A stretch of 25,202 bases of DNA, from NCBI GenBank assembly GCA_017547125.1, contig JAFYQL010000173.1, forward strand, positions 1 to 25,202, in the 5' to 3' direction. Below are positions 1,056-21,628 of the stretch, piece after piece. The notes beneath the pieces are model-generated. The model was not told the DNA's origin. It saw only the letters and a list, made by a program, of their open reading frames with translations, and searched no databases. A program made the translations under genes and the position numbers. Position 1 is the stretch's first letter. Each line of letters starts with the position of its first letter. The DNA is from Bacillota bacterium (lineage in GTDB: Bacteria > Bacillota > Clostridia > Lachnospirales > Anaerotignaceae).

Positions 1056-1084
1056 ATTTTAATCTTTAGCGGCTCAAAAATCAA
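1056..1084 (-). promoter_or_regulatory. Putative sigma-A promoter of the lipoprotein gene
   Basis: Minus strand TTGATT-N17-TAAAAT; AT-rich region, so a chance match is possible. Confidence 0.5.
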
Positions 1085-1253
1085 TAATTTTAAGATAACT
1101 GAAAGAATTGTATAGTGACAAAAGTCGCAAAAAACTGCAATTTTTTTGTTATATGGGGCGGTTTTTCTTGACACAAAAGAAAATTAGTAAAACTAACTAA
1201 AAATCCGTTAAAAAATAAAAAAAATGGAAGAAATTATAATTAAAGTTGGCGAA

Positions 1254-1282
1254 TTGAATGATTTAGTATTTTAATGTATGAT
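1254..1282 (+). promoter_or_regulatory. Putative sigma-A promoter of the atp operon
   Basis: TTGAAT (1254-1259)-N17-TATGAT (1277-1282), ~80 nt upstream of atpB. Confidence 0.6.
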
Positions 1283-1363
1283 ATAAGATGTAGAAGAATA
1301 CAAACGCACGAGATTTGCGGAAAAACGTGCAAAAAAAGTATATGAAATAAGGAGGGGAAAGGA

Positions 1364-2059
1364 ATGGTAGAAAAATTTTCGCATGAACTGTTAGAAATGC
1401 TGACATGCGAAACCGTATTTACTGTTGGAAACATTGCTGTTTCTGAATCCACTGTTGTAACCTGGATTATTATGGCTATTATGGTGCTGATAGCTATTTT
1501 GGTTACAAGAGATCTCAAAGTGGAAAATCCAAGCAGACGACAGGTGATTGTTGAACAGGCTGTTGTTTCTTTACAGGGTATTGTAAGAAGCGGTCTTGGA
1601 AAATCAGGAGAAAGATACACATACTATATGGCAACTGTTCTTCTGTATCTTGGTCTTGCAAATACCATTGGTCTTTTTGGTATGAAACCACCTACAAAAG
1701 ACCTTAATGTAACAGTAGGCTTATCAATAATGAGTATCTGCTTAATCGAGTTTGCCGGTGTTCGTGCCAAAGGGCTTAAAAAATGGGCAAAGGGCTTTAT
1801 GGAACCGGTAGCCGTTGTAGCACCTATCAATGTTCTTGAAATTTTCATTAAACCGGTTTCATTATGTATGCGACTTTTTGGTAACATTCTTGGTGCTTTT
1901 ACCGTTATGGAAATGGTAAAAATAGTAATGCCGGCAGTTGTTCCGGTAGCATTTGGTCTTTATTTTGATATTTTCGATGGTTTGTTACAGGCGTACATTT
2001 TCGTATTCTTAACATCATTGTTTATCGGAGAAGCAACAGAAACAGAAGAGGAAGAATAA
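1364..2059 (+). CDS. atpB: F0F1 ATP synthase subunit a
   Basis: PPTKDLNVT, SLCMRLFGNI (conserved Arg) and LQAYIFVFLT motifs; AAGGAGG SD. Confidence 0.96.
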   Translation: MVEKFSHELLEMLTCETVFTVGNIAVSESTVVTWIIMAIMVLIAILVTRDLKVENPSRRQVIVEQAVVSLQGIVRSGLGKSGERYTYYMATVLLYLGLANTIGLFGMKPPTKDLNVTVGLSIMSICLIEFAGVRAKGLKKWAKGFMEPVAVVAPINVLEIFIKPVSLCMRLFGNILGAFTVMEMVKIVMPAVVPVAFGLYFDIFDGLLQAYIFVFLTSLFIGEATETEEEE

Positions 2060-2082
2060 TAGTATAAAGGAGATTAAAAATT

Positions 2083-2310
2083 ATGAGTAGTTATCTTTTA
2101 GGTTTTGGCGCGGCGATCGCAGTTTTCACAGGTATTGGTGCAGGTATTGGTATTGCTATGGCAACAAGCAAAGCAGTTGAATCAGTAGCAAGACAGCCTG
2201 AAGCAGATGGTAAAATCACAAAACTTTTACTTCTTGGTGCAGCTCTTGCAGAAGCAACAGCTATCTATGGTTTCGTTATCGCTGTATTAATTATCTTATT
2301 ATTAAAATAA
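2083..2310 (+). CDS. atpE: F0F1 ATP synthase subunit c
   Basis: GxGxGxG helix, ARQPEA loop, ALAEATAIY with the ion-binding Glu. Confidence 0.97.
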   Translation: MSSYLLGFGAAIAVFTGIGAGIGIAMATSKAVESVARQPEADGKITKLLLLGAALAEATAIYGFVIAVLIILLLK

Positions 2311-2322
2311 TCGGAGGTAAAT

Positions 2323-2808
2323 ATGCTTAGATTAGACATTAATCTGGTGTTTACCATTCTTAACGTTTTGATACTCTACTTCCTTATGAAGAAGTTTTTG
2401 TTCAAACCTGTTAATGGTGTTATCGCCAAAAGAGAAGAAGAAATTCAGAAAAAACTTTCAGAGGCAGAAGTGGCAAAACAGCAGGCTGCAAGAGTAAATG
2501 AAGAATGTGCAGCAGCGGTTGAAAGCGCAAAAGAAGAAGCTGAAGCCATTATTGCTGAAGCAAAAAATAAAGGCAGAATGGAATACGAACGTATTTTAAG
2601 CACTGCAAATGAAGATGCTGCAAAGAGAATGCAGAAGGCAGAAGAAATGATTGCTGAAGAAAAAGAAAAATCTTTACGCAATATGGAAAAAGAAATCGAA
2701 GCTCTTGTTATGACAGCGGCTGCAAAGGTTGTTGGCGAAAATGTTTCAGTTGAAAGCAACAAGAGTTTTTATGATGAATTTATTGCAGAAATGGGTGAAG
2801 ACAAGTGA
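2323..2808 (+). CDS. atpF: F0F1 ATP synthase subunit b
   Basis: N-terminal TM helix followed by FLFKPV and a long charged Ala/Glu/Lys helical region; GGAGG SD. Confidence 0.93.
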   Translation: MLRLDINLVFTILNVLILYFLMKKFLFKPVNGVIAKREEEIQKKLSEAEVAKQQAARVNEECAAAVESAKEEAEAIIAEAKNKGRMEYERILSTANEDAAKRMQKAEEMIAEEKEKSLRNMEKEIEALVMTAAAKVVGENVSVESNKSFYDEFIAEMGEDK

Positions 2809-4652
2809 TACAGTCAGCAAATGATAATGCAAAGGTAATGGAGCAGCTGTCAGTATCCGATTTACTCCCACAGTTAGAAGAAGCATTACGTGCAAAAAGT
2901 AAGCTTTCAGATTTAAAAGTGGAGATTATCTGCGTTGTTCCTCCTGATGAAGAACAGCTTGAAAAAATAAAAGCTTTTATAAAGAAAAAATATGAAACAG
3001 ACAATTTTGAAGTTGTTGTCAAGGAAGACAAGAGCCTTGTCGGCGGCTTTGTAATCCGTATTGGCAACGAAGAATATGACTGGAGTATGAAGGGCAGACT
3101 TCAGAAAATTCAGCAGAACATGGTTGACAGAGCCCAGACAAAAAATGCTGAAGAAACTGAAGGAATTATCTCAATACTTAAAACAGAAATTGAAGAATCT
3201 GTTTTTGATACAAGCAAAAAAGAAGTTGGTTTTGTTACATACGTTGGTGACGGTATTGCTACAATCCAGGGTATTGAACACGCAATGTACGGCGAAATCA
3301 TCATCTTTGATACAGGCGTAAGAGGCATGGTACAGGATATCAGAAGAAACGAAATTGGTGTTATCCTTTTTGGCCGTGACGCAGGCATCAAAGAAGGCAC
3401 AAGAGTTATCAGAACAGAAAAAATGGCAGGTGTGCCTGTAGGCGAAGAATTCCTTGGAAGAGTTGTTAATGCACTTGGTGACCCTATTGACGGCAAGGGT
3501 GCAGTTACAGCTTTTGGTTACAGACCTATCGAAAACAGAGCCCCTGGTATTATTGACAGAAAAGCAGTTACTGTTCCTATGGAAACAGGTATTATAGCCA
3601 TTGACTCAATGTTCCCTATCGGCCGAGGCCAGAGAGAACTTATCATTGGTAACCGTCAGACAGGTAAAACAAGTATCGCTATGGAAGCTATCTTAAACCA
3701 GAAGGGCAAAGGCGTAATCTGTGTTTATGTAGCTATTGGTCAGAAAGCATCAAGTGTTGCAAAACAGGTTCGTATGCTTGAAGAAAACGGCGCACTTGAC
3801 TACACAATTGTTGTATCTGCTCTTGCAAGTGATACTGCATCACTTCAGTACATTGCTCCTTATGCAGGTACATCAATGGCAGAATACTTTATGTATCAGG
3901 GCAAGGACGTTCTTATTGTTTATGACGACCTTTCAAAGCATGCGGTTGCATACAGGGCCCTTTCACTCTTGCTTGAACGTTCTCCGGGACGTGAAGCTTA
4001 TCCTGGTGACGTATTCTACCTTCACTCAAGACTTCTTGAAAGAAGTGCAAGACTTGCTCCTGAGGCGGGCGGAGGCTCAATCACAGCCCTTCCTATTATC
4101 GAAACTCAGGCAAGTGACGTATCAGCATATATCCCTACAAACGTAATTTCTATTACAGACGGTCAGATATATCTTGAAAGCTCATTGTTCTTTGCAGGCC
4201 AGAGACCTGCTGTAAACGTAGGTTTATCAGTATCACGAGTTGGTGGTAATGCACAGACAAAGGCAATGAAAAAAGCAGCCGGAAGTATCCGTATTGACCT
4301 TGCTCAGTACAGAGAAATGGAAATTTTCACACAGTTCAGTTCTGAACTTGATGATGCAACAAAAGAACAGTTGGTTTATGGCCAGGGCCTTATGGAATTA
4401 TTAAAACAGCCTTTGGCAAGACCACTTTCACTTGCTGAACAGGTAATTACACTTTGCGCAGCAAACAAGAAATTGTTCCTTGATGTTCCAAAGAACAAAA
4501 TCAAACCTTTCCAGATGTATATGCTGGAATATGTTAAAGAAAACTATAGCGAAATCATTCGTGAACTGCAGGAAGAAAAGGTTCTTACAGAAGACCTTAC
4601 AGAAAATATCATCAAAGCAGTTGAGGATGCAAAGAAATGTTATCTGAAATAA
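2805..4652 (+). CDS. atpA: F0F1 ATP synthase subunit alpha with N-terminally fused delta (OSCP) C-terminal domain
   Basis: aa ~37-104 match the delta CTD (EDKSLVGGFVIRIGNEEYDWSMKGRL). From aa ~117 it is alpha (VGDGIA, PIGRGQRELIIG, PGREAYPGDVFYLHSRLLER). GTG overlaps the atpF stop (GTGA); one uninterrupted 615 aa frame. Confidence 0.93.
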   Translation: MIQSANDNAKVMEQLSVSDLLPQLEEALRAKSKLSDLKVEIICVVPPDEEQLEKIKAFIKKKYETDNFEVVVKEDKSLVGGFVIRIGNEEYDWSMKGRLQKIQQNMVDRAQTKNAEETEGIISILKTEIEESVFDTSKKEVGFVTYVGDGIATIQGIEHAMYGEIIIFDTGVRGMVQDIRRNEIGVILFGRDAGIKEGTRVIRTEKMAGVPVGEEFLGRVVNALGDPIDGKGAVTAFGYRPIENRAPGIIDRKAVTVPMETGIIAIDSMFPIGRGQRELIIGNRQTGKTSIAMEAILNQKGKGVICVYVAIGQKASSVAKQVRMLEENGALDYTIVVSALASDTASLQYIAPYAGTSMAEYFMYQGKDVLIVYDDLSKHAVAYRALSLLLERSPGREAYPGDVFYLHSRLLERSARLAPEAGGGSITALPIIETQASDVSAYIPTNVISITDGQIYLESSLFFAGQRPAVNVGLSVSRVGGNAQTKAMKKAAGSIRIDLAQYREMEIFTQFSSELDDATKEQLVYGQGLMELLKQPLARPLSLAEQVITLCAANKKLFLDVPKNKIKPFQMYMLEYVKENYSEIIRELQEEKVLTEDLTENIIKAVEDAKKCYLK

Positions 4653-4675: not shown

Positions 4676-6944
<2,269 letters not shown>

Positions 6945-13803: not shown

Positions 13804-13836
13804 AAAAAGAGACACGGAAATTTTCCGTATCTCTTT
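13804..13836 (-). terminator. Intrinsic terminator of the T-box operon
   Basis: Minus strand AAAGAGATACGGAA-aat-TTCCGTGTCTCTTTTT; one pair is a U-G wobble only on the minus strand. Confidence 0.85.
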
Positions 13837-13850
13837 GTTTTTGAGGAGAA

Positions 13851-16800
13851 TTATAATTCTTCCATATGTTTATATTTTTCGTATCTTGTGCCTGAGTCTT
13901 CTTTTGCAGCCTTGAAAAGAGTTTCTGCATATTCAGGGAAAGTACGTTTTAATGCAGAGTATCTTGTTTCGCCGTCAAGGAATTCTTCGTAGTCCATAGT
14001 TGGCTTTTTGCTATCCACTGTAAGTGGTTTTTCTGCATTAGGGTTGTAGCGGTAAAGTGTCCAGTAGCCTGAATCGACTGCACGTTTCATTTCGTTCTGT
14101 ACGTTGCTCATGCCAGCTTTGATGCCGTGTGTTACACAAGGTGTGTATGCAACGATAACAGATGGGCCTTTGTGCTGTTCAGCCTCGTGAAGAGCCTTGA
14201 TAAGCTGATTTGGGTCTGCACCCATAGCAACCTGTGCCACATATACATTTCCGTATGTCTGGAAAATGGCGCCAAGCTCTTTCTTACGGCTTCTCTTGCC
14301 GGCTGAAGCAAACTGTGCTACTGCGCCGAGAGGAGTTGCCTTTGAGCTCTGTCCGCCTGTATTTGAGTAAACTTCAGTATCTACAACAAATACGTTGATG
14401 TCTTCGCCGGATGCAACTACGTGGTCAAGACCGCCAAAGCCGATGTCATATGCCCAGCCGTCGCCGCCGAACATCCAGAAGCATTTTTTGGCAAGCTGAT
14501 CTTTTCTTTCAAGTATCTTTTTTGCAAGAGGAGAAGCTACTGCTTCAAGCTCAGCAATAAGTTCATCTGTTGCCTGACGTGAAGCATCAAAGTTGTCAAA
14601 TGCATCAAGCCAGAGTTTAGCAGCTTCACTGCCGGTTTCAGCCATATATTCTTCTACAAGGGCTTTCTGTGCAAGTCTCTGCTGTTTTACTGAAAGGAAC
14701 ATACCAAGTTCAAGCTCGGCATTGTTTTCGAAAAGTGAGTTTGTCCATGCAGGGCCAAAGCCACGTTTGTTTGTTGTGTAAGGAATGCCAGGCATTGGTG
14801 AGCCCCAGGCCTGTGAACAACCTGTTGCGTTTGCCCAGTAAACTCTGTCGCCAAAAAGCTGAGTAAGAAGCTTGGCATATGGTGTTTCGCCGCAGCCTGC
14901 ACAAGCAGCACTGAACTCAATAAGAGGCTGGCGGAACTGGCTGCCTTTGATGCTATATACATTGAAAAGGTCGCCTTTGTCAGAAATTGTGAGACCATAG
15001 TTCCAAAGCTTCTTGCTTTCTTCTGTAAGGTTGGCATCTTCCATAGTGATTGCATTTTCCTTTGCAGGGCAGCAAGCTACACAGCTGCCGCAACCTGTAC
15101 AGTCAAAGCTTGAAATCTGCATTGTAAAGTGAAGTCCTTTGGCTGCAGCACCCATAGCAGGAACTGTTTCAAAGCCTTCAGGAGCATTTGCTTTTTCTTC
15201 GTCGTTTAAGAGATATGGACGGATAACTGCGTGCGGACAAACGAGAGCACACTTGTTGCACTGGATACATTTTGAAGCATCCCATACAGGAACTTTGAGT
15301 GCGATACCACGTTTTTCAAATGCAGTAAGACCCATATCAATACGTCCGTCTTCATAGTTTTTGAATGCACTTACAGGAAGGTCATCGCCTTTCTGTCTGT
15401 TGATAGGCTGAAGAAGGTTTTTAACAACGTCAGGAAGATTGTTGTCAGCAGCAGCTTCACCGCTTTCAGCCTGTGCCCATGAAGAAGGAACATTAACCTT
15501 AACAAGCTCTGTAGCGCCTGCATCAATTGCCGCAACGTTTCTTGCAATAACGTCATCGCCTTTTGCGAAGTATGTTTTGCGGGTAGCATCTTTAATCATT
15601 CCAAGAGCGTCTTCAGTAGGAATAACCTGCATGAGAGCAAAGAATGATGCCTGAAGTACTGTGTTTGTGTGACTGCCAAGGCCTAAATCCTGAGCAATCT
15701 TGTTTGCATCTATCATGTAGAACTGAATGTTCTTTTCTGCAATCTGTTTTCTTACCTTCGCAGGAATATGGTCTTCAAGTTCGCTTTCTTTCCAGCTGCA
15801 GTTAAGAAGGAATGTTCCGCCTTCAACTATTTCGTCAATGATATCATACTGTGTTATGTAACTCTGGTTGTGGCATGCAACAAAGTCAGCCTGTTTTACA
15901 TAGTATGAGCTTGTGATTGGCTTGTCGCTGAAACGAAGGTGTGATTTTGTAACACCAAATGATTTTTTGGCATCATATTCAAAATAAGCCTGAGCAAATT
16001 TGTCTGTGTTGTCGTTGATGATACGAACTGTGTTGTGGTTTGCACCAACAGTGCCGTCACCGCCAAGACCCCAGAATTTGCATCTTACAAGGCCGTTTGT
16101 ATTTTCTGTATAAGGCTTTAATGGTAATGAAAGATGAGTAACGTCATCGTTGATACCGATAGTAAAGCTTCGGATTGGGTTTGGAGAAGCAAGGTTTTCA
16201 AATACAGCCGCAATCTGTGATGGGTCTGTATCCTTTGAACTTAAACCGTAGCGTCCGCCGATAACCTTGATCTGACGGTCGTTATTCATAAGTACAGAGC
16301 AGATATCTTCAAATAATGGTTCGCCTGCGCTGCCCATAGCCTTGCATCTGTCAAGAACGGCAATTCTTTCAACAGTTTCAGGAAGAGCCTGAAGGAAATG
16401 CTTTGCAGAGAAAGGTCTGTATAAGTGTACCTGAAGGAAGCCAACCTTTTTGCCTTCGTTAACAAGTTTTTCTGTAACATCACAGATAACACCGCTGGCT
16501 GAACCCATAGCGATAACCACATCAGTTGCATCAGGTGCACCATAGTAGTTGAATGTATGGTATTCACGGCCTGTGATTTTTGAAATTTCTCCAAGATATT
16601 TTTCAACGATATCAGGAAGGTTGTTGTAGAATGTGTTGTTTGCTTCTCTAACCTGGAAGTACACGTCACCGTTCTGAACAGTGTTACGAAGTGTAGGGTG
16701 TTCAGGGTTGAGTGAGCCGTCACGGAATGCTTTTAAAGCATCTTTGTCGATGAGGCTGCCAACTTTATCAAGGTCAGGAAGCTCAATTTTGTTGATTTCG

Positions 16801-17333
16801 TGGCTTGTTCTAAAACCATCAAAGAAGTGCATGAAAGGAATGCGTCCTTCGATAGCACTTAAGTGAGCAACAGGAGCAAGGTCTGCAACTTCCTGTACGC
16901 TGCCTGATGAAATCATAGCAAAGCCTGTCTGACGGCATGCCATAACGTCACTGTGGTCGCCGAAAATACTCATAGCGTGTGTACCAACTGTACGTGATGC
17001 CACATGAAGAACAGCAGGAAGTCTTTCCCCTGCAATTCTGTAAAGCACAGGGACCATAAGCATAAGTCCCTGTGAAGATGTATAAGATGTTGCAAGTGAG
17101 CCAGCCTGAAGAGCACCGTGCACTGCTGTGATAGCGCCTGCTTCAGACTGCATTTCTGTTAATGTTACTGTCTGGCCGAATACATTTGTTCTGCCTTTGG
17201 CTGACCATGCGTCTGTAAGGCCTGCCATAGGAGATGATGGTGTGATTGGGTAAATAGCAGCTACTTCTGTAAATGGATATGCCATATATGCAGCAGCTTC
17301 GTTACCGTCCATTGTTACATATTTTTTGGACAT
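13851..17333 (-). CDS. nifJ: Second single-chain 2-oxoacid:ferredoxin oxidoreductase (NifJ/PFOR family, PFOR-2), substrate possibly not pyruvate
   Basis: All cofactor motifs present (YPITPSS, CIQCNKC..CP, CTGCGSC..CP, CAGCGE, GDGWAYDIG, EVYSNTGGQ). ATG 17333 is 6 nt after GAGGTG. Confidence 0.93.
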   Translation of the reverse strand: MSKKYVTMDGNEAAAYMAYPFTEVAAIYPITPSSPMAGLTDAWSAKGRTNVFGQTVTLTEMQSEAGAITAVHGALQAGSLATSYTSSQGLMLMVPVLYRIAGERLPAVLHVASRTVGTHAMSIFGDHSDVMACRQTGFAMISSGSVQEVADLAPVAHLSAIEGRIPFMHFFDGFRTSHEINKIELPDLDKVGSLIDKDALKAFRDGSLNPEHPTLRNTVQNGDVYFQVREANNTFYNNLPDIVEKYLGEISKITGREYHTFNYYGAPDATDVVIAMGSASGVICDVTEKLVNEGKKVGFLQVHLYRPFSAKHFLQALPETVERIAVLDRCKAMGSAGEPLFEDICSVLMNNDRQIKVIGGRYGLSSKDTDPSQIAAVFENLASPNPIRSFTIGINDDVTHLSLPLKPYTENTNGLVRCKFWGLGGDGTVGANHNTVRIINDNTDKFAQAYFEYDAKKSFGVTKSHLRFSDKPITSSYYVKQADFVACHNQSYITQYDIIDEIVEGGTFLLNCSWKESELEDHIPAKVRKQIAEKNIQFYMIDANKIAQDLGLGSHTNTVLQASFFALMQVIPTEDALGMIKDATRKTYFAKGDDVIARNVAAIDAGATELVKVNVPSSWAQAESGEAAADNNLPDVVKNLLQPINRQKGDDLPVSAFKNYEDGRIDMGLTAFEKRGIALKVPVWDASKCIQCNKCALVCPHAVIRPYLLNDEEKANAPEGFETVPAMGAAAKGLHFTMQISSFDCTGCGSCVACCPAKENAITMEDANLTEESKKLWNYGLTISDKGDLFNVYSIKGSQFRQPLIEFSAACAGCGETPYAKLLTQLFGDRVYWANATGCSQAWGSPMPGIPYTTNKRGFGPAWTNSLFENNAELELGMFLSVKQQRLAQKALVEEYMAETGSEAAKLWLDAFDNFDASRQATDELIAELEAVASPLAKKILERKDQLAKKCFWMFGGDGWAYDIGFGGLDHVVASGEDINVFVVDTEVYSNTGGQSSKATPLGAVAQFASAGKRSRKKELGAIFQTYGNVYVAQVAMGADPNQLIKALHEAEQHKGPSVIVAYTPCVTHGIKAGMSNVQNEMKRAVDSGYWTLYRYNPNAEKPLTVDSKKPTMDYEEFLDGETRYSALKRTFPEYAETLFKAAKEDSGTRYEKYKHMEEL

Positions 17334-17350
17334 GTTTGTCACCTCGTTAA

Positions 17351-19867
17351 TTAGTTGTTGCTTTTTGCTGTGTCAATACCTGCAGCGCCGACTAAACCAA
17401 GCTTGTTGGCATATTCTTCGCGCATCTTATATTTTAACACTTTTCCAGCTGCATTCATAGGGAATGAGTCGACAAAGTCAATGTATTTAGGAACTTTATG
17501 TCTTGCCATGCTTGCGGCGATGTAGTCGTGCATTTCTTCAACTGTCATGCTGCAGCCTTCCTTAAGGATAACGCAGGCCATAGCTTCTTCGCCGTAGCGC
17601 TTGTCAGGAACACCGATAACCTGTACGTCACGTACTGATGGGTGTGTATAGATAAATTCTTCAATTTCTTTTGGATAAATGTTTTCGCCGCCGCGGATAA
17701 TCATATCTTTAAGACGACCTGTGATACGGAATGTACCGTCAGCTTCTCTGCAGGCAAGGTCGCCTGAGTGGAGCCATCCGTCTGCGTCGATAGTGTCACG
17801 GGTTGCTTCAGGCATCTTGTAGTAGCCTTTCATAATGTTGTAACCGCGTGAGCAGAATTCGCCGTTTACGCCGTCAGGAACAACTTCGCCTGTTTCTGGG
17901 TCAATAACCTTACATTCAACGTGTGGGAAGTTATAGCCAACAGTGTTTGTACGAAGATCAAGAGGATCTTCCCAAGCTGACATTGTGCTGCCCGGAGATG
18001 ATTCTGTTTGGCCGTAAACACTTACGATACCTGTCATATTCATTTCGTTAGGGTCTGCAGCACGTCTCATAAGGTCAGGAGGACAGCCGGCGCCGGCCAT
18101 AATACCTGTACGCATGTATGAGAAGTTAGTCTTTCTGTAGTCTTCGTGGTTGAACATAGCTATGAACATAGTAGGCACACCGTTGAAGCAAGTGATTCTT
18201 TCCTGATTGATGCAGGCAAGTGATGATTTTGCTGAGAAGTATGGAAGCGGACAAACTGTTGCACCGTGTGTGAGAGATGCAGTCATTGAAAGTACCATAC
18301 CGAAGCAGTGGAACATAGGAACCTGAATCATCATACGGTCTGCAGTTGAAAGTCCCATTCTGTCACCGATACATTTACCGTTGTTAACTACGTTGTAGTG
18401 TGTAAGCATAACGCCTTTAGGGAAACCTGTTGTACCTGATGTGTACTGCATATTACAAACATCGTCAGGTCTTACCTTTGCTGCCATTCTGTTAAGTTCT
18501 TCAGGGGCAACAAGGTCTGCTCTTTCCATAGCTTCTTCAAATGTGAGGCAGCCAGGCTGCTTGAAGCCAACTGTAATTACATTACGAAGGAATGGAAGGC
18601 GTTTGCAGTGAAGAGGCTTGCCAGGTTTGCTTGTGGCAATTTCAGGACAAAGCTCATTGATAATCTGTTTGTAGTTTGAGTCAAGACAAGACTCAATCAT
18701 AATAAGTGTATGAGTATCTGACTGGCGGAAAAGGTAGTCAGCTTCGTGAATCTTGTATGCTGTGTTTACAGTAACAAGTACGGCACCGATTTTTGTTGTT
18801 GCCCAGAAAGCAATATACCATGCAGGTACGTTTGTTGCCCAAACTGATACCTTATTGCCTGCTTTTACGCCAAGAGAGATAAGTGCTCTTGCAAAGTTAT
18901 CAACGTCTTCACGGAATTCTTCGTATGTACGTACATAGTCAAGTGTTGTGTACTTGAATGCATACTGGTCAGGGAATTCTTCAACCATACGGTCAAGAAC
19001 CTGTGAGAATGTGAGGTTGATAAGTTCGTCTTTTTTCCAAACATACTGGCCTGTGCCGTCGTGGTTAGGATAAAGAACTTTCTTTTTGCCGCGTGTCTTT
19101 TCGAAACGGCTCATATAGTTTACAAAGTGAGGGAAAATAACTTCGTATTCAGGAAGGTCTTCCATCCACTCAATTTTCCATTCAAGAGAAATATAACCGT
19201 CATAGTCGATTGATGAAAGCGCTCTCATCATATCATCGATAGGAAGAGTACCTTCGCCTATAAGGTTGTATGTGTCTTTGTCGTCTGAGTCACGGAAATG
19301 AACGTGTTTTACATAAGCACCAAGGTTTTTGATAGTTGCATCTGCGCTTTCGTTAAAGTCGCGATATGGGTGGTGAATATCCCATAATGCAGCAAGCTGG
19401 TCGCATGCAAAGCTGTCCATAAGTGAACGGAGACGTGATGTGTCAGCATAAATACCGCTTGTTTTTACAAGAATTGTTACGTCTGCATCTTCTGCATCGT
19501 CAAGAAGCTCAGCTATTCTTTCGCGAACGAGGTCTTCGTTTTCGTGAAGAGCAACAACTGTAACGTATGGAACCTGCATCTGTTTTGCAGTCTGAATAAG
19601 TTCTTTGATGGCAGGAACAAAGTTTTCTTCGTTTGAAGAAAGGTCACAGGATGTATCGAAACAAGGAATAGCAAGTTTCTTTTCTCTGAGCTGACGAGAT
19701 GTTGATGCCATATTATATTTGTGGAAAGGGCCACTGCGTTCTGTTAATTCAGGGAATTTTGGAAGGTTATAAACTTCTATGCCGGCAAAATCCATTGTTT
19801 CGCCAATTTCAAGATATTCATCCCAGTTTAAATGAGCCCAGCCTCTGGTTGAAAATGAAAGTTTCAT
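17351..19867 (-). CDS. AMP-forming acyl-CoA synthetase with N-terminal xylose-isomerase-like TIM-barrel domain
   Basis: C-terminal ~560 aa: YTSGTTGFPKG, PMFHCFG, YGQTE, GWLHSGDL, RLKDMIIRGGENIYP, AGKVLK. N-terminal ~255 aa: FAGIEV, WDIHH, KHVHFRD, GEGTLP, YDGYISLEW. Confidence 0.9.
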   Translation of the reverse strand: MKLSFSTRGWAHLNWDEYLEIGETMDFAGIEVYNLPKFPELTERSGPFHKYNMASTSRQLREKKLAIPCFDTSCDLSSNEENFVPAIKELIQTAKQMQVPYVTVVALHENEDLVRERIAELLDDAEDADVTILVKTSGIYADTSRLRSLMDSFACDQLAALWDIHHPYRDFNESADATIKNLGAYVKHVHFRDSDDKDTYNLIGEGTLPIDDMMRALSSIDYDGYISLEWKIEWMEDLPEYEVIFPHFVNYMSRFEKTRGKKKVLYPNHDGTGQYVWKKDELINLTFSQVLDRMVEEFPDQYAFKYTTLDYVRTYEEFREDVDNFARALISLGVKAGNKVSVWATNVPAWYIAFWATTKIGAVLVTVNTAYKIHEADYLFRQSDTHTLIMIESCLDSNYKQIINELCPEIATSKPGKPLHCKRLPFLRNVITVGFKQPGCLTFEEAMERADLVAPEELNRMAAKVRPDDVCNMQYTSGTTGFPKGVMLTHYNVVNNGKCIGDRMGLSTADRMMIQVPMFHCFGMVLSMTASLTHGATVCPLPYFSAKSSLACINQERITCFNGVPTMFIAMFNHEDYRKTNFSYMRTGIMAGAGCPPDLMRRAADPNEMNMTGIVSVYGQTESSPGSTMSAWEDPLDLRTNTVGYNFPHVECKVIDPETGEVVPDGVNGEFCSRGYNIMKGYYKMPEATRDTIDADGWLHSGDLACREADGTFRITGRLKDMIIRGGENIYPKEIEEFIYTHPSVRDVQVIGVPDKRYGEEAMACVILKEGCSMTVEEMHDYIAASMARHKVPKYIDFVDSFPMNAAGKVLKYKMREEYANKLGLVGAAGIDTAKSNN

Positions 19868-21279
19868 TATACCTCAGCCTCCTCGTAAGTAATCTTATTA
19901 AGTGCGTTGATGTAAGCCTGAATACTTGAGCCTACGATGTCAGTTGATGTACCACGGCCTGAGTAAAGTTTGCCATTGGAACGAAGTTTAACTACAGTTT
20001 CGCCCATAGCTTCGCGGCCTTCTGTTACGGAACGAATCTGGAAATCATCAAGTTCATAATGGCAGCCAAGAATGTTTTCGATAGCAAGGAATGCTGAGTC
20101 GATAGGACCGTCGCCAAGTGCAACGCCTTCAAGCATCTGACCATGTTTTTCAAGCTTCATATGAGCCATTGATGATGATGTGTTGCTTGCTGTGATGTTG
20201 TAGCTGTGAAGAACGTATGTTGAAGGAACCTGCATAGCTGCTGAAGCAACGATTGTATCAAGTTCTCTTGTTGTGATAACGTCTTTTCTTGCGGCGATTT
20301 TCTGGAATGCATCCCAAACCTGTGCGCCGTCTTCTTCGCTTAAGTCATAGCCAAGTTTTTCAACTGATTTAAGTACAGTTGACATATTGTCGTGGCTTGT
20401 AAGTGACATATCTTCTGTAATTTCCTGAACACCATTGTCGAATGGTGAGTTTTTGCTTCTTCTTGTTTCGCACATCCATGAAATCTGTTTGATGATGCGG
20501 TTCATTTCAACTGTGCGTACGCTGCAGTTAACTCCGAATGAGTCGCCTTTTGCAGCAAGAAGACGTGAAACGTGAGGAAGTGATACAGTGTTTATTTGAT
20601 ATGCAGCAGCTTTAATTTCTTTTACGCCGTGTTTGATAGCAGCAACTGCACAGGCATCAGCCATAGCAAGTTCGTTTGAACATGAAAGGCCAAGCACTGC
20701 ATCTTTAAGCTCATCAACATTTGCATAAAGTTCATCAATAAATTCGCCAAGTTCGTCAGGAAGCATAGCACCTGTTGCATCGCATACAGTTACTGTTTTT
20801 GCACCTGCATTGATAGCTGATTTGATAACTTGATATAAAAATGCCTTGTCGCTTCTTGTTGCGTCATCTGCAATAAATTCTACGTCGCTTGTTTTTGCGC
20901 AGCAGGCAGCAATTGTATTTTCAATAGCCTTAAGCATAGCTTCAGGCTTTTTGTTGAAAAGGTATTCCATCTGAACTGGGCTTACAGAAGCACGTACCTG
21001 AAGACGAGGATGTTTAGCCTCTTTAAGTGCATTCCAAGTGATGTCGATGCTTTCTTCAGCAAGCTGAACAGGTACTGCTACGATACTGTTTTTTACTGTT
21101 GAAGCAACTGATTTTATACGTAAAGAATCAATCTTAGGCTGTGTGATAGGTTCAAGCTCAATTACAGAAACGTTTAGTTTATCAAGCAGTTTAGGTATTT
21201 CAATCTTTTCTTTGAAAGAAAGAGTAAATTCTTTTCCGGTCTGTTTCATTGTAATGTCACTGATTCTGATCTGGTCCAT
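19867..21279 (-). CDS. LeuA (2-isopropylmalate synthase)-like protein, predicted catalytically inactive, with intact C-terminal regulatory domain
   Basis: LeuA-like EFIADDATRSD and VCDATGAMLP; regulatory domain GDGPIDSA, EGREAMGE, STDIVGSS. The RDGEQ, HxH and GERxGN motifs are absent. ATG 21279 after AAGAGGTG; the track start lies inside the T-box terminator. Confidence 0.85.
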   Translation of the reverse strand: MDQIRISDITMKQTGKEFTLSFKEKIEIPKLLDKLNVSVIELEPITQPKIDSLRIKSVASTVKNSIVAVPVQLAEESIDITWNALKEAKHPRLQVRASVSPVQMEYLFNKKPEAMLKAIENTIAACCAKTSDVEFIADDATRSDKAFLYQVIKSAINAGAKTVTVCDATGAMLPDELGEFIDELYANVDELKDAVLGLSCSNELAMADACAVAAIKHGVKEIKAAAYQINTVSLPHVSRLLAAKGDSFGVNCSVRTVEMNRIIKQISWMCETRRSKNSPFDNGVQEITEDMSLTSHDNMSTVLKSVEKLGYDLSEEDGAQVWDAFQKIAARKDVITTRELDTIVASAAMQVPSTYVLHSYNITASNTSSSMAHMKLEKHGQMLEGVALGDGPIDSAFLAIENILGCHYELDDFQIRSVTEGREAMGETVVKLRSNGKLYSGRGTSTDIVGSSIQAYINALNKITYEEAEV

Positions 21280-21307
21280 TTTGTTACACCTCTTTTTTCT
21301 GAATAAA

Positions 21308-21340
21308 TAAAAAAATCCTTGAAGCATTATGCCTCAAGGA
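21308..21340 (-). terminator. T-box attenuator terminator
   Basis: TCCTTGAGGCA-taa-TGCTTCAAGGA-TTTTTTT, mutually exclusive with the antiterminator. Confidence 0.92.
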
Positions 21341-21590
21341 CGAACAATCAAATTCGCGGTACCACCTTGATTACAGCAGCCTTTCAGCATACTGTCTCTC
21401 TCGGACTCGTAAAAGCCCATAGCCTGTAACGGGGCGACCGTACTCCACTACCCAAATGAAAACATTCTTCGCAGAGTCGACTCAGGAGTGAGACTGCAAT
21501 CTTTCTTCCGTACCGATTTTCACCAGCCATCGGCTCTCTGAAACTTTCGTAAAGATGCATAATTCCGTTATAGTCGTTGTGTTTTTAAAA
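21308..21590 (-). promoter_or_regulatory. T-box riboswitch leader, leucine-specific (CUC specifier)
   Basis: Minus strand shows stem I with AGAGAG bulge and GCTGGTGAAA loop, specifier region CTCACTC (21492-21486), stem II, CCGTTA stem IIA/B, stem III, T-box AAGGTGGTACCGCG (21368-21355) with partner CGTCCTT, and an overlapping terminator. Confidence 0.95.
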
Positions 21591-21598
21591 TTGCATTT

Positions 21599-21628
21599 AG
21601 TATAGCACAAAAAAGGGGAAATAGTCAA
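21599..21628 (-). promoter_or_regulatory. Sigma-A promoter of the T-box operon
   Basis: TTGACT-N18-TATACT with extended -10 TGc, directly upstream of stem I. Confidence 0.8.

Follow-up and report, generated by a model that had tools for sequence, protein, structure and literature searches.

What does a leucine-responsive T-box control when no gene of the isopropylmalate pathway lies behind it? The question is raised by contig JAFYQL010000173.1 of assembly GCA_017547125.1, from a Bacillota bacterium of the family Anaerotignaceae. The entire 25.2-kb contig (C160 in our numbering) was analyzed over its 25,202 nt and is called the window here. On its minus strand, positions 13,851 to 21,628 hold a leucine (Leu) T-box operon of three genes, encoding a LeuA-derived pseudoenzyme (pLeuA), a TIM barrel fused to an acyl-coenzyme A (CoA) ligase (barrel-ligase), and a second pyruvate:ferredoxin oxidoreductase (PFOR-2). 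T-boxes induce their genes when the cognate tRNA is uncharged. The 2-oxoacid:ferredoxin oxidoreductases (OFORs) are reversible, VOR being the known branched-chain member. That anaerobes of the rumen and gut require branched short-chain acids for growth, or make use of them, has been established for sixty years. We propose that the operon responds to leucine starvation and makes leucine from exogenous isovalerate and CO2. We give this reading a probability of roughly three in four, and it is strongly supported by comparative genomics.

A leucine T-box operon of three genes

The leader RNA (21333–21580; all operon coordinates refer to the minus strand) matched the Rfam covariance model RF00230 over its full length, scoring 99.2 bits (gathering score, 93; E = 4.7e-21). 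The specifier codon CUC (Leu, 21490–21492) was read at the specifier position of the model and is followed by a purine, the A at 21489. The conserved T-box sequence, with its UGGN, is present as GGUGGUACCGCG, and a terminator hairpin of 12 pairs with a U-run lies at 21341–21315, its 5' arm overlapping the antiterminator sequence of the T-box. A promoter-like site of the sigma-70 type (TTGACT-18-TGnTATACT, 21599–21628) ends about 19 nt 5' of the T-box. It has 10 of 12 consensus matches, the best in the region, and is identified by this match only; it is the weakest element of the operon, promoter-like sites being no more frequent in the region than in shuffled sequences.

The gene for pLeuA (470 aa, 19867–21279) starts at the ATG at 21279, behind AAGAGGTG. 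The start given by the open reading frame (ORF) finder, at 21327, falls inside the terminator and is not the real one. The TAA of pLeuA overlaps the ATG of the barrel-ligase as TAATG at 19867. The fusion protein comprises a xylose-isomerase-like TIM-barrel domain (aa 1–270, 19058–19867) and an AMP-forming acyl-CoA ligase domain (aa ~280–838, 17351–19030), the latter a predicted isovalerate-CoA ligase. The barrel-ligase gene ends at 17351, 17 nt from the likely ATG of PFOR-2 at 17333, which stands behind GAGGTG. PFOR-2 itself (ORF 13851–17342) is a single-chain 2-oxoacid:ferredoxin oxidoreductase and a predicted 2-oxoisocaproate synthase. An intrinsic terminator, a 14-pair hairpin with a T-run (13806–13836), follows 15 nt past its stop codon.

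A sequence-only reading of the window had described one promoter, a T-box specific for Leu, three tightly linked genes with the TAATG overlap and the 17-nt gap, and one terminator. All of these were recovered, the promoter as a consensus match only. It had also listed no leuB/C/D or ilv gene in the operon, and we found none there or elsewhere on the contig. Database entries for the module proteins carry only the names 'AMP-binding protein', 'hypothetical protein' or '2-isopropylmalate synthase'.

Conservation of the T-box and of the gene pair

A scan of one genome per species yielded 286 relatives of pLeuA. The best 80 loci and 4 more distant ones were examined, giving 84 loci, most of them from gut metagenomes of herbivores and humans. 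Wherever the contig of a fetched locus extended far enough, the barrel-ligase adjoined pLeuA. The T-box core motif was found 5' of pLeuA in 77 of 81 upstream regions, and a variant motif in at least one other raised this to at least 78/81. The specifier in the orthologous leaders was always CUC or CUG, and the reading frame overlapping it was not conserved; such synonymous exchange is expected under selection for leucine specificity. Leu T-box control of the pLeuA/barrel-ligase pair was kept across pLeuA identities from 86% down to 40%. Conservation of the T-box and of the linked genes, which the sequence-only reading had named as a point to check, was thus found for the leader and for the pair alike.

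When ARAGORN was run on the source metagenome-assembled genome (MAG; 1.2 Mb, 68% complete, 39% G+C), only 13 tRNAs were detected, none of them tRNA-Leu. A catabolic reading of the operon, from leucine to isovalerate, was also considered and is rejected, because a T-box induces on amino-acid shortage; it is further disfavored in that AMP-forming ligases conserve no energy in reverse.

Linkage to an oxidoreductase and a transaminase

The 84 loci were sorted by the oxidoreductase near the gene pair. PFOR-2 was in the operon at 28 loci and a VorB-type oxidoreductase cluster in the flanks at 23; none had both. At 9 loci an acyl-CoA ligase with N-terminal helix-turn-helix (HTH) and cupin domains was seen before the contig broke off ahead of any oxidoreductase, and at 10 the flanks were too short. 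Neither oxidoreductase was seen at the remaining 14, of which 10 had less than 1.2 kb downstream and 4 were informative. An oxidoreductase was therefore linked in 51 of 55 informative loci. Since the two architectures never occur at one locus, they replace each other.

The sequence-only reading had placed the transaminase elsewhere in the genome, and an IlvE was indeed found on another contig (C207) of the source genome. In several other genomes, IlvE or its 55–58% identical homologues belong to the module. In L068 the gene is the immediate downstream neighbor of PFOR-2, and in L086 and L088 it immediately precedes pLeuA; in L092 it comes behind the ligase, and in L057, L065, and L081 behind OFOR gamma. 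Where scored, in L092, the protein passes its equivalog cut-off. L092 has a single Leu T-box operon in the order pLeuA, barrel-ligase, IlvE, P-loop protein, and OFOR delta, alpha, beta, and gamma, so that ligase, oxidoreductase, and transaminase share one operon in L068 and L092.

In a further locus (L098, 12893–15103, plus strand), the stop codon of the barrel-ligase gene overlaps the start codon of a gene for a pyridoxal-phosphate enzyme of Cys/Met metabolism, behind which comes one for a homoserine O-succinyl/acetyltransferase, so that methionine genes are part of the operon there.

Complementary distribution with leuB

An even sample of the class, 399 genomes of which 350 were of high quality, was searched for pLeuA and leuB. 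pLeuA was present in 79 genomes, about a fifth, and in 63 of the high-quality set. With the source genome left out, 9 of the 78 pLeuA-positive genomes (12%) had a leuB over the cut-off, compared with 200 of the 320 pLeuA-negative genomes (62%). Considering that relatives are not independent in such counts, separate contrasts within genera and families were examined. Within genera g67, g134, and g93, and likewise within family f37, no carrier held leuB. Entire families were complementary too; pLeuA stood against leuB, for example, at 13/15 versus 3/15 in f27, 7/7 versus 1/7 in f42, and 0/14 versus 14/14 in f47. Among 30 carriers reached through the related loci, 5 had a leuB over the cut-off and 4 more had a weaker leuB-like gene. 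These counts suggest that the module resides mostly where the isopropylmalate pathway is missing, as expected of an alternative leucine supply.

Parallel isoleucine and valine units

In loci of the Oscillospiraceae type, such as L055, a second, divergent T-box that reads AUC (Ile) stands beside the Leu T-box. This second T-box precedes genes for HTH-cupin::acyl-CoA ligases (one or two), for a MinD/CbiA-like P-loop protein, and for a VorB-type alpha/beta/gamma oxidoreductase. Locus L096 has three T-boxes in a row, for Leu, Ile, and Val, each 5' of one ligase, and its Val unit runs on into ferredoxin and oxidoreductase genes. The L096 leaders scored 82–92 bits, just below the gathering score, with E values of 1e-17 to 1e-19. 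L096 derives from a human-gut metagenome. The public assembly collection records its pLeuA variant in 1147 blocks, and 673 contigs with the variant were seen, so the lineage is common.

Among the NCBIfam models, MbcS fits the Ile- and Val-gated ligases best. Purified MbcS of Staphylococcus aureus activates 2-methylbutyrate and isobutyrate, and isovalerate poorly (PMC10026030); a separate type of ligase in the leucine unit fits this preference. The sister ligases thus point to a corresponding arrangement for the two remaining branched acids.

The MbcS-type ligases of L055 (4401–9290, minus strand), L096 (13354–18411, plus strand), and L098 (3100–5388, plus strand) carry an N-terminal XRE-type HTH and a cupin domain, and are frequently found as a tandem pair of paralogues controlled by Ile and Val T-boxes. 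The DNA-binding domain suggests that the enzyme also regulates transcription. A small MinD/CbiA/Mrp-like P-loop protein always lies between the ligases and the VorB-type genes (L074, 16673–17383; L092, 12977–13645; L096, 18426–19097) and may help to insert clusters into the oxidoreductase or to mature it. In L096, a malK-I RNA motif (6738–6916, plus strand, 137 bits) was found 5' of an ABC-transporter ATPase gene, 2 kb from the module.

PFOR-2 and its substrate pocket

The second PFOR claimed for the operon proved to be a full single-chain enzyme. It scored 1685 bits against TIGR02176 (cut-off 911), with all domains present and Cys812, Cys815, and Cys840 aligned. PFOR-2 is 55% identical to PFOR-1, the first PFOR of the contig (8372–11995, plus strand), and 51% identical to a third PFOR of the genome.

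The pocket motif of PFOR-2 is GCSQAWG, whereas PFOR-1 and the enzymes of M. thermoacetica (6cin) and D. africanus (7plm/1b0p) have GCSSIWG. The third PFOR keeps the Ile, as GCTHIWG. Codons Gln844-Ala845 (14808–14813, minus strand) align with Ser842-Ile843 of D. africanus, beside the cluster ligand Cys840. Alignment to the D. africanus and M. thermoacetica enzymes thus confirmed the motif given in a further note on the window, and showed in addition a Met in place of Leu121. Gln-Ala was found in 23 of 23 module-linked PFORs matched by the motif pattern. Ile843 of D. africanus, which we take to line the methyl-group pocket in the pyruvate complex, corresponds to Ala in PFOR-2; on that assumption, Ala at this place would give space for an isobutyl group.

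The third PFOR is encoded on the minus strand of contig C58, at about 1071–4577, as an open frame of 1180 aa with a His-to-Asn change in the motif HALSIFGDH; it is thus a third single-chain paralogue for a genome of about 1.8 Mb.

pLeuA, a LeuA without its metal ligands

pLeuA consists of an HMGL-like barrel (PF00682, 104 bits) and an intact LeuA_dimer domain (PF08502, 102 bits). Every LeuA cut-off was missed, the best NCBIfam equivalog score being 295.9 bits against a cut-off of 532. Comparison with solved LeuA structures showed that RDGEQ is changed to KQTGK and HxHND to SCSNE, both metal-binding His residues being Ser; the catalytic metal ligands are absent, in agreement with the earlier description of an inactive-looking LeuA. 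In the AlphaFold model (predicted local distance difference test score, pLDDT, 89), the barrel superposed on Listeria LeuA (3ewb) with a template modeling (TM) score of 0.94 and a root-mean-square deviation of 1.5 Å. Because the model is confident, the superposition close, and the metal ligands lost, pLeuA is predicted to be a folded LeuA without a catalytic center.

A search of 1.8 billion representatives gave about 105 pLeuA clusters at 50% identity, with lengths of 453–497 aa, and the family appears to be large and old. RDGEQ and HxH were absent from all ~105 clusters, and three true LeuAs aligned with them keep both motifs. Conservation in the family is much stronger in the C-terminal regulatory domain than in the barrel, and the motifs GDGPIDA and STDI..AS..AY..ALNK of that domain are common to true LeuAs. 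The barrel has invariant residues of its own, specific to the family (F22, S100, K111, D139, and P174). When we tried to map a leucine site, the PDB sequence search reached no regulatory domain of a short-form LeuA and returned only the regulatory domain of CimA (3f6g, 26 bits). The conservation pattern, the translational coupling, and the strict co-occurrence with the ligase suggest that pLeuA is probably a leucine sensor that restrains the ligase.

A distant relative of pLeuA (~35% identity) occurs in L093 (8001–9449, plus strand). It is a solitary gene in surroundings of ribosomal and tRNA-modification genes, immediately preceded by a tRNA gene, and has neither T-box nor barrel-ligase; the pseudoenzyme may therefore have other partners.

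The barrel-ligase fusion

The second protein of the operon (838 aa) has the domain content claimed for it, a TIM barrel (aa 1–270) joined to a complete AMP-forming acyl-CoA ligase. The barrel matched PF01261 with 74.3 bits (cut-off 31.1). Its AlphaFold2 model (pLDDT 90) superposed on UlaE and D-tagatose 3-epimerase with a TM score of ~0.73, and fold and Atlas searches returned only generic sugar 3-epimerases and isomerases of 13–20% identity. The Glu-Asp-His-Glu metal site is incomplete: Asp163, His190, and Glu229 are kept, and the first Glu is Lys134. Most members have Lys at this position, and the distant L086, L092, and L095 still have Glu. A companion note to the sequence-only reading had called the barrel 'degenerate', which is overstated; since ~40 residues are invariant, the domain appears to be under clear purifying selection rather than decaying. 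Its conservation, its translational coupling to pLeuA, and their strict co-occurrence point to a possible docking or coupling element.

The ligase part matched PF00501 (301 bits) and PF13193 (63 bits), with YTSGTTGFPKG and AAGKVLK in the translation. Its closest group is PRK12583/FadD; a close relative that has been characterized was not found, and its best PDB match is a fatty-acyl/feruloyl-CoA synthetase (260 bits). Across the related loci, identity was 81–94% in the ligase domain, 59–86% in pLeuA, and 57–86% in the barrel.

A proposed route from isovalerate to leucine

In the proposed mechanism, uncharged tRNA-Leu would pair with the CUC specifier and stabilize the antiterminator, so that the operon is transcribed. 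The ligase domain is predicted to convert isovalerate, ATP, and CoA to isovaleryl-CoA. PFOR-2, its pocket widened by the Ile-to-Ala change, would then run in the synthase direction and use reduced ferredoxin and CO2 to form 4-methyl-2-oxopentanoate, which IlvE, encoded on C207, would aminate to leucine. pLeuA is most likely a leucine-binding protein that forms a complex with the N-terminal barrel and so restrains the ligase, adding post-translational feedback to the T-box; this is the weakest step of the scheme. In other lineages a VorB-type four-subunit oxidoreductase would take the place of PFOR-2, and the MbcS-like ligases under Ile and Val T-boxes may feed that enzyme 2-methylbutyrate and isobutyrate.

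The sequence-only reading had put forward the same salvage route. Each step that can be followed in sequence came out as it had predicted, namely the T-box, the linkage, the IlvE, the Ile and Val units, the pocket, and the leuB pattern; the catalytic steps themselves keep the standing of a prediction. A more specific version, in which pLeuA retains only its leucine-binding domain as a functional part and is a detachable allosteric subunit of the ligase, an unrelated enzyme, that docks on the sugar-isomerase-type barrel as an adaptor, and a NifJ-type PFOR has been retooled by a two-residue change into a 2-oxoisocaproate synthase, is advanced tentatively, and we judge it somewhat more apt to fail than to hold.

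Several points weigh against the isovalerate-to-leucine route. The functions of the module proteins are assigned by sequence comparison, and isovalerate as the substrate of the ligase is predicted from context only; the ligase falls below every NCBIfam cut-off, the best being PRK12583 with 670 bits against 832. The barrel and the dead LeuA are dispensable for the proposed chemistry. PFOR-2 scores as a bona fide PFOR and keeps the cluster cysteines as well as Arg114, Thr31, Ile123, and Asn996, and the methyl-pocket role of Ile843 is assumed. Some carriers hold leuB too (the 9 of 78 mentioned above), and genus g121 is an exception to the disjoint pattern, with leuB in 3 of 5 carriers. For leuBCD and an intact leuA, which the sequence-only reading had proposed to look for in the genome, a search of the source MAG found none of leuA, leuB, and leuCD, which is weak evidence of absence at 68% completeness. 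The module is absent from two congeners of the source genome, and the flanking genes of the window are not beside the module in the other loci, so the operon seems to travel as a cassette. It could be mobile, or the contig could be misbinned. The G+C content gave no clear signal of transfer (43% in the operon versus 40% in the rest of the contig).

The retained carboxylate-binding residues and the equivalog score of PFOR-2 would also suit an ordinary pyruvate enzyme that supplies low-potential reduced ferredoxin (and CO2), while a VorB-type enzyme elsewhere carboxylates isovaleryl-CoA. The source genome does have VorB-like genes (alpha/beta/gamma on C120, beta/gamma on C137), and characterized single-chain PFORs prefer pyruvate and barely use branched 2-oxoacids; in a 2026 review of PFOR diversity (PMC13768988), none of the single-chain PFORs listed takes a branched 2-oxoacid well, and a branched substrate for PFOR-2 is therefore an unusual prediction for the family. 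However, a helper should occur together with the VorB-type enzyme, and the absence of both types from any one of the 84 loci is a pattern of replacement. PFOR-1, 2 kb away, could already reduce ferredoxin, and operons with pLeuA, ligase, PFOR-2, and IlvE exist without VorB nearby. Besides, Ile-to-Ala and Ser-to-Gln are fixed in all 23 pattern-matched module PFORs and absent from the two other PFORs of the genome. We therefore regard a helper role of PFOR-2 as unlikely.

Two further explanations were considered, and both are very unlikely in our judgment, the second slightly more so. One makes the barrel and the dead LeuA catalytic, converting a precursor other than isovalerate before CoA activation. 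The ~40 invariant barrel residues, with three of the four metal ligands kept (all four in distant members), and the family-specific invariant residues in the barrel of pLeuA would agree with this. Yet all three metal ligands are lost in every pLeuA member, and conservation in the pLeuA barrel falls far short of that in the regulatory domain; in the ligase barrel, Lys freely takes the place of the first metal Glu, and ligase, OFOR, and IlvE already form a complete route from isovalerate. The other makes isovaleryl-CoA a primer for iso-branched membrane fatty acids under leucine shortage, with leucine not the end product. A Leu T-box would be sensible there, because leucine shortage starves the primer supply, and MbcS of S. 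aureus is a precedent for branched-acid activation. But the obligatory linkage to an oxidoreductase, the IlvE in the same T-box operons, and the complementary distribution with leuB would be left unexplained, and an oxidoreductase working oxidatively under leucine shortage would destroy a leucine precursor. The synthesis of leucine from isovalerate and CO2 is thus the reading we prefer.

If it is correct, the module provides candidate genes for a pathway known only from labeling since the 1960s. Predictions of leucine auxotrophy would be wrong for thousands of gut genomes without leuABCD, and isovalerate cross-feeding would become a predictable trait; the module is carried by one very common human-gut lineage. 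It would also offer molecular markers for branched-acid feed supplementation in ruminants, show clearly how a pseudoenzyme can be recruited as a sensor, and supply a PFOR whose physiological substrate is not pyruvate.

Genomic surroundings

The operon lies between a sigma factor gene and a germination protease gene, the latter followed downstream by genes for RNase Y and a ZIP transporter. The contig also carries other housekeeping genes, among them those for ribosomal protein S20, a PfkB kinase, PFOR-1, and a polysaccharide deacetylase, together with an F-type ATP synthase operon. In the ATP synthase operon, a 615-aa ORF (2805–4652, plus strand) carries a C-terminal segment of OSCP/delta (aa 32–106) ahead of a complete alpha subunit, and a separate delta gene was not seen between atpF and atpG.

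In place of leucine-pathway genes, the source genome has only a 4-hydroxy-2-oxovalerate aldolase, a YbhJ-type hydratase, and a Re-citrate-synthase-like gene accompanied by an isocitrate dehydrogenase. On contig C32 (132–3227, minus strand), a luxS-like gene separates the gene of a 460-aa HMGL-like synthase from that of an isocitrate dehydrogenase close by. The synthase reaches no cut-off for LeuA, homocitrate, or citramalate and probably acts as a Re-citrate synthase. Together with the YbhJ-type hydratase on C141, it looks like part of an oxidative branch to 2-oxoglutarate.

Comparison with known systems

The module shares its riboswitch class and the logic of its control with the T-box(Leu) ilv-leu/leuA operons of Firmicutes and Geobacter; in Geobacter, the leuA T-box senses tRNA-Leu(GAG), the reader of CUC and CUU (PMC2700814). 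Unlike those operons, the T-box of the window controls no isopropylmalate-pathway genes, and its sole LeuA relative appears catalytically dead.

pLeuA shares the fold, the LeuA_dimer domain, and the motifs GxGPIDA and STDI...AY..A.NK with the short bacterial form of LeuA (Listeria, 3ewb; Neisseria, 3rmj) and the LeuA of M. tuberculosis (1sr9/3fig). It differs from them in lacking RDGEQ and HxHND, in scoring below the equivalog cut-offs, and in being paired with an acyl-CoA ligase. With the NifJ-type PFORs of D. africanus (1b0p) and M. thermoacetica (6cin), PFOR-2 shares the full single-chain architecture and the motifs for thiamine pyrophosphate and three clusters (1399 bits to 6cin). In contrast to them, it has Ala for Ile843 and Gln for Ser842 beside the proximal cluster Cys, and its gene sits in a Leu T-box operon.

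Like the ligase of the window, MbcS is an AMP-forming enzyme, and it activates exogenous short branched acids. However, the window ligase belongs to another subfamily of the ANL enzymes (PRK12583/FadD-like) and carries an N-terminal TIM barrel, and MbcS feeds lipid synthesis, not amino-acid synthesis.

The closest physiological precedent comes from the rumen. Allison, Bryant and co-workers reportedly used labeling in the 1960s to show that rumen anaerobes reductively carboxylate isovalerate to leucine. In the literature that we searched, no gene assignments for this carboxylation and no description of the module were found, in keeping with the sequence-only reading, which knew of no account of the three genes together. 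The physiology is therefore old and the enzyme classes are known, whereas the gene set, the tRNA-sensing control, and the LeuA pseudoenzyme partner are undescribed as far as we found; the same applies to the barrel-ligase fusion and to a PFOR-type enzyme in branched-acid carboxylation. The module shares the predicted chemistry and the gut habitat with the rumen pathway. That pathway has been defined by labeling and by crude carboxylation activity, and the module offers a gene set and a regulator for it, adding two types of protein that the biochemistry of the rumen pathway does not predict.

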